From Escherichia phage phiE142, in the sequence record NC_055709.1: DNA of 64,000 nucleotides; one strand, written 5' to 3'. Position 1 is the first letter of the stretch. Every line of letters starts with the position of its first letter. This document shows, piece by piece, positions 568 to 5,635 of this stretch. Made by a program: the position numbers and the translations under genes. The notes beneath the pieces were generated by a model. It ran no database searches. It was given only the letters and a program-made list of their open reading frames with translations, and was not told the DNA's origin.

Positions 568-3500
568 ATGGCTACTTTAAAACAAATACAATTTAAAAGA
601 AGCAAAACTGCAGGAGCACGTCCTGCCGCTTCAGTATTAGCCGAAGGTGAATTGGCTATAAACTTAAAAGACCGCGTACTTTTTACTAAAGACGACCAAG
701 GAAATATCATTGATCTTGGTTTTGCTAAGGGTGGTAGTATTGACGGGAATGTTATTCATATAGGAAACTATAATCAAACTGGTGATTATACTTTAAATGG
801 CGTCTTCACTCAGACTGGTAATTTTAATTTAACTGGTATTGCTCGAATAACTCGCGATATTATTGCCGCTGGGCAGATTATGACTGAAGGCGGAGAACTT
901 ATTACAAAAAGTTCAGGTACATCACATGTTCGTTTTCATGATTCAGCTGACCGTGAACGTGGAATCATTTTTTCTCCTGCTAATGATGGATTAACTACAC
1001 AAGTAATTAATATTAGAGTTCAAGACTACGCAGCTGGTAGCGAAAGCACCTATGCATTTTCAGGCAGTGGACAATTTATTTCACCTGAAGTATCGGCATG
1101 GAAATCTATGTCAACTCCTCAGATTTTGACTGACAAAGTCATTACAGACGGGAAGAAGGCAGGTGATTATGACATCTATTCATTAGCAAATAATAATTCT
1201 AATACAGATAAAAATAATTTACGTGTTGTACGTACCGACCCAGCGGCCGCAATGCTCCATGAAATTTGTGAAAACAACGGCATCAGTTGGTATTCTGGTT
1301 CAACCCCTACTGATTATATGTTATCTTTTGCTTATTCCGGCGGTTTTCAAGCAGGCCATTCGATTGCAGTAGGTATGGAATCAGGGCCTATGACATATTC
1401 AACCTTAGGTAAAGGTTCTATTGTTCTTGGGGATAATGATACTGGATTTAAATGGCATCAAGACGGATATTATTTCAGCGTTAATAATGGAACAAAAACG
1501 TTTTTATTTAGTCCTAGCGAAACAACTAGCCTAAGAAAATTTGTAGCTGGATATTCTACTAATGGAACCGATTTAACTACTCCTCCAACTGAAAACTATG
1601 CTCTTGCTACTGTTGTGACATATCACGATAATAACGCGTTTGGAGATGGTCAGACTCTTTTGGGATATTATCAAGGCGGTAACTATCATCACTATTTCCG
1701 TGGTAAGGGTACCACAAACATTAATACTCATGGCGGTTTGTTGGTTACTCCTGGTAATATTGATGTTATTGGCGGTTCTGTTAATATAGATGGTAGAAAT
1801 AATTCTTCTACACTAATGTTTAGAGGCAACACAACAGGATACAGCTCGGTTGATAATATGGATATTAAAGTTTGGGGTAATACGTTTGTTGATCCAAGCG
1901 GAGGTATCCGTAAAAACATTATGGAAATTTCTGATGCAACTAGCTGGATGAGCTATATTCAAAGACTTACTACTGGCGAAGTAGAAATGAACGTTAATGG
2001 TTCATTTGAATCATCTGGTGTTACTGCTGGAGATAGAGGAGTTCACACAACAGGTGAAATTTCATCTGGAGCAGTGAATGCTCTTCGTATTTGGAACGCA
2101 GATTATGGAGCCATTTTTAGACGTTCAGAAGGAAGTCTTCATATTATTCCAACTGCTTATGGCGAAGGCAAAGATGGCGATATTGGTCCACTTCGCCCAT
2201 TTAGTATGGCTTTAGATACTGGTAAAGTTACTATTCCAGATTTACAATCAAGTTACAATACGTTCGCTGCTAACGGTTATATTAAATTTGTTGGTCATGG
2301 AGCGGGTGCCGGCGGTTATGACATTCAATATGCTCAAGCGGCTCCTATTTTCCAGGAAATCGATGATGATGCGGTAAGTAAATATTATCCTATTGTTAAG
2401 CAGAAGTTTTTAAACGGTAAATCTGTTTGGTCTTTAGGTACCGAAATTAATTCGGGTACATTCGTTATTCATCATCTGAAAGAAGATGGATCACAAGGCC
2501 ATACATCTCGTTTTAATCAAGACGGCACAGTTAATTTCCCTGATAACGTTCTGGTCGGCGGCGGCGAAGCTGCTATTGCTCGTAATGGTAATATTTTCTC
2601 GGATATCTGGAAAACGTTTACTTCAGCAGGCGACGTAACTAATATTCGCGATGCAATAGCTACTCGTGTTGCTAAAGAAGGTGATACGATGACAGGCCGC
2701 TTAACTCTTAATGCAAACTCTGATGCCATCGTTATTAATAGCACGGCAACCGAATCTGGCTATTTGAAAGGACAAAAAGCAGGCGTTGATAACTGGTATG
2801 TAGGTAATGGTGGTGCTGATAATGCCATATCGTTTTATAGTTTCCAAAATAGATCAGGCATATATGTTAATAATGGTGGTGATATTGCTTTAAACCCAGA
2901 AGGGACCGCCACTTTTAATTTTAATAGGGACCGACTTTATATAAATGGTTCGGTCTGGACCTCACACCAGGCTGGCGATTGGGGAAATCAATGGCGCCAG
3001 GAAGCCCCCGTATTTGTGGATTTTGGCTATGTCGGTAATGATAGTTATTATCCAATTATCAAAGGAAAATCTGTTATTACGAATGAAGGATACGTATCTG
3101 GTGTTGATTTTGGTATGCGCCGTACCACTAACCAATGGGCTCAGGCTATTATCCGTGTTGGTAACCAGGAAAATGCTAGCGATCCACAAGCTATCTATGA
3201 ATTCCACCACAATGGAGTTATGTATGCTCCTAACATGGTACAAACTGGAGCAAGATTATCGGCTGGCGGTGGTGACCCGGTGTGGACTGGACCATGTCTT
3301 GTTATTGGCGATAATGATACTGGATTAGTTCATGGTGGTGACGGCCGAATCAATATGGTTGCCAATGGTATACATATTGCAAACTGGGGAGCAGGCTATC
3401 AATCTCATCCTGGGCTTTGGGATTCAACCGGTGCTTTTTGGACAGAAGTTGGAAGAGCTATCGTTTCTCATGGGCATCTCGTTCAGGCAAATGATAGTTA

Positions 3501-3867
3501 TTCAACGTTTGTCCGTGATGTTTATGTCCGTTCTGATATTCGAGTTAAAAAAGACCTTGTTAAATTTGAAAATGCTTCTCAGAAGCTTTCTAAAATTAAC
3601 GGTTACACTTATATGCAGAAGCGAGGCCTAGATGAAGAAGGCAATCAGAAATGGGAACCTAACGCCGGTTTAATTGCTCAAGAAGTTCAAGCTATTTTGC
3701 CAGAATTAGTTGAAGGTGACCCGGATGGTGAAGCTTTACTTCGTTTGAACTATAACGGTGTAATTGGTTTAAATACAGCTGCAATCAATGAGCATACTGC
3801 AGAAATTGCAGAACTTAAGTCAGAGATTGAAGAGCTTAAAGCATTAGTTAAATCATTGTTAAAATAA
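568..3867 (+). CDS. 37: Long tail fibre large distal subunit gp37 with C-terminal intramolecular-chaperone-like domain
   Basis: 1099-aa ORF; [10 protein letters not shown] fibre motif; C-terminal ~110 aa (NGYTY...[15 protein letters not shown]...coiled coil) resemble self-cleaving chaperone domains of tail fibres; followed by gp38. Confidence 0.9.
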
Positions 3868-3898
3868 TAAGAGGGGCTTCGGCCCCTTGGAGGTTTAT

Positions 3899-4675
3899 AT
3901 GGCAGTAACAGGACCGTGGGTAGGATCGTCTGCAGTAGTTAATACAGGACAAAATTGGATGGGCGGCGCGGCCCAACGATTAAGAATGGGCATTCCGTTC
4001 TGGATGAGTAATATGATAGGTCGATCTGTTGAAATAATTCACACGCTTGGAGCAGACCATAACTTCAATGGTCAATGGTTCCGAGATAGATGTTTTGAGG
4101 CAGGTAGTGCACCTATAGTGTTTAATATCACTGGAGATTTAGTATCATATTCTAAAGATGTTCCTTTATTCTTCATGTATGGAGATACACCGAATGAATA
4201 TGTTCAGTTGAATATACACGGCGTAACGATGTATGGACGTGGCGGTAATGGCGGTAGCAATAGTCCTGGTTCAGCTGGAGGTCATTGTATTCAAAACGAT
4301 ATTGGTGGGAGACTAAGAATTAATAATGGTGGAGCTATTGCTGGAGGTGGCGGCGGTGGTGGCGGCGGATATTATTCTCCTTTTTCAAAAATGAGATTGA
4401 CTTTTGGAGGTGGCGGCGGGCGTCCGTTTGGCGCACCGGGCGGATCTATTGATATGCAATCAGGAGCAACTGCTGGTACTATTTCTGCGCCTGGCGCAGG
4501 GTCTGTGAACGGTATCTATAGCGGCGGTGGCGGTGGCGAAGTTGGCTCCGCAGGAGGTAGATGTAATATTCGTGGTCAAGGATCTGAATACGATGGCGGA
4601 GCTGCTGGTTATGCCGTCATAGGGTCTGCTCCAACGTGGATAAATGTTGGAGCAATATATGGTCCAAGAGTATAA
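3899..4675 (+). CDS. 38: Receptor-recognising tail-fibre adhesin gp38 (T2-type, glycine-rich motifs)
   Basis: Several poly-Gly motifs ([38 protein letters not shown]) separated by variable segments; ATG at 3899 preceded by GGAGG (ORF track begins at a TTG at 3887). Confidence 0.8.
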
Positions 4676-4705
4676 TTTGAATAAATATCCTTAAAAGGAG
4701 GGTCT

Positions 4706-5362
4706 ATGGCAGCACCTAGAATATCATTTTCGCCCTCTGATATTCTGTTGGGTGTTCTAGATCGCTTGTTCAAAGATAATGCTACCGGGAAGGTTCTTGC
4801 TTCCCGGGTAGCTGTCGTAATTCTTTTGTTTATAATGGCGATTGTTTGGTATAGGGGAGATAGTTTCTTTGAGTACTATAAGCAATCAAAGTATGAAACA
4901 TACAGTGAAATTATTGAAAAGGAAAGAAATGCACGCTTTGAATCTGTCGCCCTGGAACAACTCCAGATAGTTCATATATCATCTGAGGCAGACTTTAGTG
5001 CGGTGTATTCTTTCCGCCCTAAAAACTTAAACTATTTTGTTGATATTATAGCATACGAAGGAAGATTACCTTCAACAATAACAGAAAAATCACTTGGAGG
5101 ATATCCTGTTGATAAAACTATGGATGAATATACAGTCCATTTAAATGGACGTCATTATTATTCCAATTCAAAATTTGCTTTTTTACCAACTAAAAAGCCT
5201 ACTCCCGAAATAAATTACATGTACAGTTGTCCATATTTTAATTTGGATAATATCTATGCTGGAACAATAACCATGTACTGGTATAGAAATGATCATATAA
5301 GTAATGACCGCCTTGAATCAATATGTTCTCAGGCGGCCAGAATATTAGGAAGGGCTAAATAA
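4706..5362 (+). CDS. t: Holin (T4 gene t type)
   Basis: 218 aa, N-terminus MAAPRISFSPSDIL, single TM segment, near-identical to T4 holin T as I recall it; position after gene 38. Confidence 0.85.
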   Translation: MAAPRISFSPSDILLGVLDRLFKDNATGKVLASRVAVVILLFIMAIVWYRGDSFFEYYKQSKYETYSEIIEKERNARFESVALEQLQIVHISSEADFSAVYSFRPKNLNYFVDIIAYEGRLPSTITEKSLGGYPVDKTMDEYTVHLNGRHYYSNSKFAFLPTKKPTPEINYMYSCPYFNLDNIYAGTITMYWYRNDHISNDRLESICSQAARILGRAK

Positions 5363-5635
5363 TTATTTGTTTGTATACATCTCTAGATATCGATATACAC
5401 CCTCAAAACCCTCGTTGAATTCGTCGATGAGGGTTTTCTTATCTTCTTGGGTTAATTCAGAAACAATTTTACGGAATGAATTCTGATTTAATTTTCTACC
5501 TTCATGCGTTACTCCAATCTCATTCAGAAATGCAATAAAATTAGCACGATTCTCAACAATATCTTCTCTGGAAAATTTAATCAAAATAGACGCAACAGTA
5601 ATAATTTCACGAACTGTATCAATGTTTTTATTCAT
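5363..5635 (-). CDS. asiA: Anti-sigma70 factor AsiA
   Basis: 90 aa MNKNIDTVREIITVASILIKFSREDIVENRANF... matches T4 AsiA from memory. Confidence 0.9.
   Translation of the reverse strand: MNKNIDTVREIITVASILIKFSREDIVENRANFIAFLNEIGVTHEGRKLNQNSFRKIVSELTQEDKKTLIDEFNEGFEGVYRYLEMYTNK

Follow-up and report, generated by a model that had tools for sequence, protein, structure and literature searches.

The window analysed here, the whole stretch of 64,000 nucleotides (64 kb) from Escherichia phage phiE142, contains gp36 (8-559), gp37 (568-3867), gp38 (3899-4675) and holin t (4706-5362), with asiA-like, motA and topoisomerase genes downstream of holin t. Gene 38 is located directly 3' of gene 37 within the distal tail-fibre cluster, and the order gp36-gp37-gp38-holin t is likewise annotated in 13 related phage records. 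Family membership was judged with two Pfam profiles, each with a curated threshold of 25 bits, and the ORF lies above both: GP38 (PF05268) matches with 5.5e-71 and 239 bits over profile positions 1-218 of 218, and Gp38_N (PF21721) with 1.4e-21 and 76.6 bits over positions 1-40 of 40. The ORF at 3899-4675 also matches PHROG 2056, 'tail fiber protein; host specificity', at 9e-110, and an exact-sequence look-up returned YP_010088470.1 of Escherichia phage phiE142 from the first to the last residue. The identity of the gene and its genomic context are thus direct observations of this study. In the GenBank phage collection searched, no record is identical to gene 38, the best being RB27 with 97.4% DNA identity (20 nucleotide differences). 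The published phiE142 genome of 121,442 bp is short for a Tequatrovirus, related records having 164-170 kb, and the genome paper gives no gp38 analysis (PMC5154165).

The carrier partner of gp38, gp37, has a C-terminal Peptidase_S74 intramolecular chaperone domain at aa 989-1048 (Pfam). As gp37 provides its own S74 domain, the arrangement is the one in which gp38 is the adhesin and not a T4-type assembly chaperone. The features of the two genes are as follows.

568-3867, + strand: gene 37, distal long tail fibre subunit of 1099 aa and carrier partner of gp38 (gp37_trimer, Gp34_trimer and Peptidase_S74 domains)
3899-4675, + strand: gene 38, receptor-recognising adhesin of 258 aa plus stop (Pfam, PHROG 2056, exact protein YP_010088470.1)
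3899-4018, + strand: N-terminal attachment domain, aa 1-40 (Gp38_N match; conserved W7, W20 and W35)
4019-4234, + strand: first part of the central beta-helix domain, aa 41-112 (beta strands in the AlphaFold2 model, pLDDT 83-97)
4235-4255, + strand: glycine-rich motif GRM1, GRGGNGG, aa 113-119 (G113, R114, G115, G116 and G118 invariant in 73 sequences; pN = 0)
4256-4276, + strand: hypervariable segment HVS1, approximately loop A, aa 120-126 (high entropy and indels in 118 sequences)
4277-4369, + strand: GRM2 block, aa 127-157 (a conserved beta-helix rung, then a nine-Gly run at 4343-4369; pN = 0)
4370-4405, + strand: HVS2 or loop B, aa 158-169 (aligns with PP01 loop B; contains the K164 codon AAA at 4388-4390)
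4406-4444, + strand: GRM3, aa 170-182 (invariant G170, G171, G173, G174, P176, G178 and G181)
4445-4522, + strand: HVS3, aa 183-208 (loops C and D, parted by conserved GATAGT..APGAG strands)
4523-4558, + strand: GRM4, aa 209-220 (conserved; five-Gly run at 4523-4537)
4559-4594, + strand: HVS4 or loop E, aa 221-232 (high entropy)
4595-4624, + strand: GRM5, aa 233-242 (conserved in the alignments)
4625-4672, + strand: conserved C-terminal strands closing the beta-helix, aa 243-258 (model strands at 240-242, 246-249 and 252-254)
4342-4356 and 4405-4419, + strand: perfect in-frame 15-nt direct repeat TGGAGGTGGCGGCGG, bracketing HVS2

Between the gp37 stop and the Shine-Dalgarno sequence of gp38 there is a GC-rich hairpin with a UUCG tetraloop (3871-3888; core GGGGC-UUCG-GCCCC, -14 kcal/mol), which lacks a U-tail on the + strand. 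Its equivalent in phage G10400 is annotated as a putative terminator, and the hairpin may serve to stabilise or process the mRNA. An Rfam search of 3500-5500 gave no matches, and no convincing promoter or terminator was seen within gene 38. The sole minus-strand ORF of at least 50 aa that overlaps the gene (4609-4773, 54 aa) was judged trivial.

Glycine motifs and hypervariable segments

In the C-terminal half of gp38, five conserved GRMs alternate with four HVSs, and the domain built in this way spans 4235-4624. Glycine accounts for 37% of the residues encoded by 4240-4570, compared with 12% in the N-terminal 112 aa. The stretch ggaggtggcggcggtggtggcggcgga at 4343-4369 encodes nine consecutive glycines (aa 149-157), two further runs of five glycines are found at 4406-4420 and 4523-4537, and there are in addition seven GG pairs. 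At the DNA level, the pattern (GGN)5 occurs seven times on the two strands of the window, each time within the three Gly runs of gene 38, and none is expected by chance (100 dinucleotide-preserving shuffles); the Gly/GGN pattern is real and non-random. The third codon positions of the runs are mixed (GGA, GGT and GGC), and because of this the tracts are weakly tandem-repetitive as DNA, Tandem Repeats Finder reporting a 12-nt unit in 1.9 copies and a 6-nt unit in 2.7 copies.

To place these features among their relatives, the window protein was aligned with 117 cluster representatives of 50-93% identity, 118 sequences in all. IMG/VR and JGI metagenome scans gave mostly distant gp38 genes, and the close relatives came from GenBank phage records. 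In this alignment the entropy of the Gly motifs is near 0, and it is high in aa 120-126, 158-169, 183-208 and 221-232, where the indels also lie. The five-Gly form of GRM4 is in the minority, most relatives having GGNGG or GGSGG. An earlier note on this DNA had described poly-Gly blocks separated by variable stretches at 4240-4570, in GGN-repetitive DNA, and had proposed an alignment with related gp38 proteins. The alignment bears out the description, with three Gly runs, near-invariant motifs and variable intervening segments in the 118 sequences. The domain was correctly located, and its extent has to be corrected to 4235-4624, as an end at 4570 cuts HVS4 and omits GRM5 (4595-4624). The GGN repetitiveness holds as a count, with seven (GGN)5 against none expected, and has to be qualified as weakly tandem with mixed third positions.

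Among 16 T6-like alleles, the GRMs have a pN of 0.018 at a pS of 0.29 and the HVSs a pN of 0.067 at a pS of 0.27, so that pN is about fourfold higher in the HVSs at equal pS. The combination of a low pN and a pS equal to that of the HVSs indicates that the motifs are held by selection on the protein; by the same comparison, the segments between them are relatively free or diversifying. The beta-helix part (aa 41-112) has the lowest pN (0.008) and the lowest pS (0.15) of the gene. The highest pN, 0.158, is that of the N-terminal attachment domain, above the HVSs, and within the T6-like group the most variable and the receptor-determining parts of gp38 therefore do not coincide.

T6-like alleles that are otherwise nearly the same carry one or another of several sharply distinct modules in the N-terminal domain (3899-4045); RB5, for example, differs from the window by 17 non-synonymous codons in the first 40 and by almost none thereafter. 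W7 is invariant in 73 sequences, W20 is nearly so in both alignments and W35 in the 28-sequence alignment. In S16, tryptophans of the attachment domain insert into gp37 (PMC6851490), and the variability of the N-terminal module probably tracks the gp37 tip as partner and not the receptor.

Synonymous differences among close alleles cluster at the third positions of the Gly-run codons (4343-4444 and 4523-4558). Relative to the beta-helix domain, synonymous divergence is raised about twofold in the pooled GRMs and about threefold in GRM3, 10 of whose 13 codons show synonymous differences from phage Pu-Krd-SF6. This excess might be explained by relaxed codon constraint, by conversion between runs or by an older ancestry of the block.

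Recombination and slippage

The window allele is a mosaic, an observation made directly on the aligned sequences. It combines an N terminus of the RB27 type, a specificity domain of the RB27/RB5 type and a patch at 4628-4645 of the FL23/IME537 type, with boundaries at about 4046, at 4342 and at 4628. The contrast between modules in the N-terminal domain points to recombination near 4046. Position 4342, the start of the nine-Gly tract, is the best breakpoint in the comparison with EPIMRB01 (exceeded in 0 of 1000 permutations), and in the FL23 comparison the density of differences jumps at the same position. The patch at 4628-4645 contains, within 18 nt, 7 of the 20 nucleotide differences from RB27 (maximum chi-squared exceeded in 0 of 1000 permutations). 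This patch differs from RB27, RB5 and G10400, is identical in FL23, IME537 and EPIMRB01, and has the appearance of a short tract of gene conversion or recombination immediately downstream of GRM5.

The boundary at 4342 agrees with an engineered exchange of gp38 'from HVS2 onwards', which changed the receptor from Tsx to OmpA (bioRxiv 10.64898/2026.04.02.716166), and with the crossovers in GRMs of Tetart et al. (1998), as cited in PMC3157838 and PMC12032242. These same three observations are what one would expect if the GRMs mattered mainly as short stretches of DNA homology for the shuffling of individual HVSs, their structural role in the protein being secondary. This explanation also draws on nucleotide identity to 36 divergent alleles, which is 0.60-0.74 in the GRMs against 0.25-0.48 in the HVSs. 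However, the GRM pS of 0.29 matches that of the HVSs and is roughly double the beta-helix value of 0.15, as is expected from selection on the protein and not on the DNA. Exact matches of at least 14 nt with divergent alleles cover on average 0-2% of GRM positions, whereas in the beta-helix region the mean is 9% and the best-covered positions reach 28%. Furthermore, all 14 of 14 RB5 x RB32/33 recombinants had swapped the whole HVS set and none had crossed between GRM1 and GRM5 (PMC3157838), and the available structures give a sufficient protein-level reason for the conservation of the glycines. A role of the GRMs as islands of DNA identity is thus weakly supported by the sequence comparisons, and we consider it possible, but distinctly less probable than a structural role in the protein.

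The earlier note had attributed a host-range hotspot at this site to slippage and recombination favoured by the GGN-repetitive DNA. In its strongest form, this would make the GGN tracts a contingency locus in which replication slippage changes the run length or deletes segments and so creates new host ranges. Within the 64-kb window (GGN)5-9 tracts are unique to gene 38; they include the 12-nt unit in 1.9 copies, and the perfect 15-nt in-frame direct repeat lies around HVS2. In line with such a process, HVS2 is precisely what is missing from at least two of the cluster representatives (P0005 and P0030), and P0110, a third one, is without both HVS2 and GRM3. The P0005 deletion junction, GCAGGC-GGCGGTGGCGG with the hyphen at the joint, is located inside the GGN direct repeat of GRM2/GRM3. 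As P0030 is present in a k=119 assembly and in an independent Logan assembly, assembler collapse of the 15-nt repeat is unlikely in that case. These alleles suggest that direct repeats can mediate deletions.

On the other hand, the run lengths are fixed: nine glycines are kept in 27 of 29 T6-like representatives, the two exceptions being whole-segment deletions, and the GRM3 run consists of five glycines in 115 of the 118 sequences. The mixed GGA/GGT/GGC codons do not form a perfect microsatellite. No perfect short tandem repeat with a copy number varying among close relatives, as a contingency locus would have, was found in the gene, and slippage was rejected as a source of standing variation on the grounds that the T6-like group has essentially no Gly-run length polymorphism (118 representatives screened). 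The documented changes of specificity are substitutions or block exchanges. With regard to the deletions themselves, Trojet et al. did not recover viable T6 without HVS1-3 or GRM2-4 (PMC3157838), and the contig of P0005 encodes an abnormally short gp37 of 477 aa; for these two reasons the HVS2-deletion alleles are probably defective or artefactual. A host range generated by slippage therefore appears very improbable to us.

The HVS2-deletion alleles lie at 3001-3717 of contig L013, 309-1037 of L086 and 143-871 of L087, the deletion being equivalent to 4342-4419 of the window. In the Logan contig L013 the 477-aa gp37 (1533-2966) compares with about 1100 aa usually, which suggests either that a second deletion has occurred within this repetitive fibre gene or that the gene was collapsed during assembly. 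The other contigs with an HVS2 deletion are about 1 kb long.

Of the mechanism put forward earlier, recombination at the Gly motifs stands, given the 4342 boundary, the repeat-bounded HVS2 deletions and the published crossovers. Slippage as the origin of host-range change does not, in view of the near-invariant run lengths, the mixed GGN codons and the fact that the changes on record are either point substitutions or exchanges of an entire HVS set. The site is a hotspot all the same, with HVS pN about four times that of the GRMs at equal pS and published receptor switches mapping to HVSs; it is probably one because its loops touch the receptor and whole blocks recombine, and not because the DNA is slippery.

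Fold, receptor and lysine 164

In a PDB sequence search the window protein matched two solved gp38 structures, that of PP01 (9v85, 5e-80) and that of S16 (6f45_D, 6e-53). An AlphaFold2 model built from 73 sequences has a mean pLDDT of 89.8, with values of 87-98 throughout the Gly-rich half. Foldseek aligned this model with 9v85 at an E value of 5e-27 (target-normalised TM score 0.88, rmsd 2.3 A) and with 6f45_D at 9e-23 (target-normalised TM score 0.75); beyond PP01 and S16 gp38, nothing in the PDB scored below E = 1. The similarity in fold, like the conservation pattern described above, is an observation on the window protein itself. That the gene encodes a T4-type gp38, a non-virion assembly chaperone with a flexible low-complexity linker as its Gly-rich region, would fit its position, which is the same as that of T4 gene 38, and some database names that still read 'distal long tail fiber assembly catalyst', but this is refuted by the adhesin families PF05268 and PF21721, the PDB sequence and Foldseek matches to solved adhesins, the pLDDT of 87-98, which argues against disorder, and the S74 intramolecular chaperone domain of the partner gp37, and can be dismissed with near certainty.

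The protein is thus an adhesin, for which the matches indicate a beta-helix with a polyglycine-II (PGII) sandwich; we infer the PGII geometry from the homologues, as DSSP cannot label PGII. In S16 the Gly motifs are folded into a three-layer sandwich of ten polyglycine-II helices, and the segments between the helices form five distal loops, the proposed receptor site (PMC6851490). The nine-Gly run of the window aligns with S16 151-GGGGGGGG-158, which is PGII helix 3 (PMC6851490). PP01 loop A (W119-I124) aligns at HVS1, and PP01 loops A-D correspond to window aa 119-123, 159-168, 182-187 and 203-207. Residues of PP01 loops D and E cross-link to OmpC, one of them being Y230 in loop E (PMC12892980), which aligns with S229 of the window. 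Contacts between the loops and a receptor would be expected in the window protein on the basis of these homologues and the literature.

It is very probable, in our view, that the product of 4235-4624 is the polyglycine sandwich with which a gp38 of the T6 subtype binds its receptor, and that its loops set specificity and change through substitution or block exchange. According to this model, every long tail fibre would end in a single gp38 monomer that sits on the gp37 trimer as a cap and is attached to it by the helical domain at its N terminus. The GRMs would fold into polyglycine-II helices packed side by side in a rigid lattice, and since only glycine fits this lattice, they would be frozen at the protein level. 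HVS1-4, forming the five loops A-E, would project from the distal face and contact the extracellular loops of an outer-membrane protein. Specificity could then change by two routes. One would be point substitution in the loops; the other would be homologous recombination that replaces the block carrying them, where the crossovers fall in conserved stretches within the domain or next to it (N-terminal domain, GRM2 block, GRM5 or C terminus).

As to the receptor itself, the adhesins of RB27, RB5, RB3 and T6 are T6-like and have Tsx as their receptor (Trojet et al., 2011, PMC3157838), and Tsx users have one HVS set in common (PMC3157838). Over 4058-4627 the window differs from RB27 and RB5 at two positions, 4360, which is synonymous, and 4388, and Q164K is the sole difference from either in aa 113-242. 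Over aa 41-258, RB27 and RB5 each differ from the window protein at four positions (I46V or V44R, K164Q, A244T and I248Q). FL23 and FL44, with 91% DNA identity to gene 38, also use Tsx (PMC12032242). Because the HVSs are near-identical to those of Tsx users, the receptor is most likely the nucleoside channel Tsx, an assignment by homology and from the literature. A counterpoint is that receptor use is known to shift with single changes in an HVS, and the window allele has one such change, K164. In RB68 the single change Q206L in HVS3 altered the receptor from OmpF to OmpW (bioRxiv 10.64898/2026.04.02.716166), and the specificity change D190G of T2 also maps to HVS3 (PMC12529663).

Residue 164 is lysine (codon AAA, 4388-4390), and all other T6-like alleles examined have glutamine (CAA). 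Lysine at this site was absent from the 117 cluster representatives, 15 close alleles and 172 phage records, and it is the sole residue of the window protein that was not seen in any of the 117 representatives. The 55 nt around the codon have no exact match in the 172 phage records, the best having one mismatch. In the model, loop B forms a beta-hairpin of strands 157-162 and 165-170 with residue 164 between them, and in the alignment this residue corresponds to Q167 of T6. The Yersinia-infecting phage PST differs from T6 by Q167R, M168I and G208I and has an expanded host range (PMC3157838), and the metagenomic allele P0003 has arginine at the same site. In spot tests phiE142 is reported to lyse E. 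coli O157:H7 and some Salmonella strains (PMC5154165). One could speculate that Q164K is an adaptive host-range mutation that helps to explain the reported lysis of Salmonella besides O157:H7; we regard this as rather unlikely. If it were true, a basic residue at this loop B site would be a recurrent route of Tsx-type adhesins to other genera, with arginine in PST and P0003 and lysine in the window gp38 as examples. K164 is the single lead in this gp38 that is worth bench work.

Comparison with known gp38 adhesins

The GRM/HVS architecture was already known, having been published between 1989 and 2018, and nothing reported here is new in kind: a textbook architecture is confirmed and the allele is placed in the T6/Tsx subtype. 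The assignment matters because in most T-even phages it is chiefly gp38 that chooses the porin, so that a correct reading of its loops is of help in host-range prediction or engineering for phage therapy and biocontrol. The arrangement had been described in the earlier note as the one that sets receptor choice in T2-type gp38. An adhesin with GRMs and HVSs is what Pfam, the PDB matches and the literature (PMC3157838, PMC6851490) indicate, and T6/RB27 is the more precise name for its subtype.

With the solved gp38 structures of PP01 (9v85) and S16 (6f45), the window protein would have in common a three-domain fold consisting of an attachment domain, a beta-helix and a PGII sandwich with distal loops. 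Both of these adhesins bind OmpC, and they have 68% and 44% identity, respectively, to the window protein, the differences being mostly in loops A-E. Among the closest known systems are the gp38 proteins of T6, RB27, RB5 and RB3, with which the window protein has its length class, the five GRMs and the four HVSs in common (85% protein identity to T6 gp38). Its N-terminal attachment module is of the RB27 type and not of the T6/RB5 type, whereas the patch near its C terminus (4628-4645) belongs to the FL23/IME537 type and not to the RB27 type. PST gp38 is likewise of the T6 type (PMC3157838), and in it Q167 is replaced by a basic residue, arginine, where the window has lysine. The changes M168I and G208I, however, belong to PST, and the window protein retains M165 and G205 at these sites.
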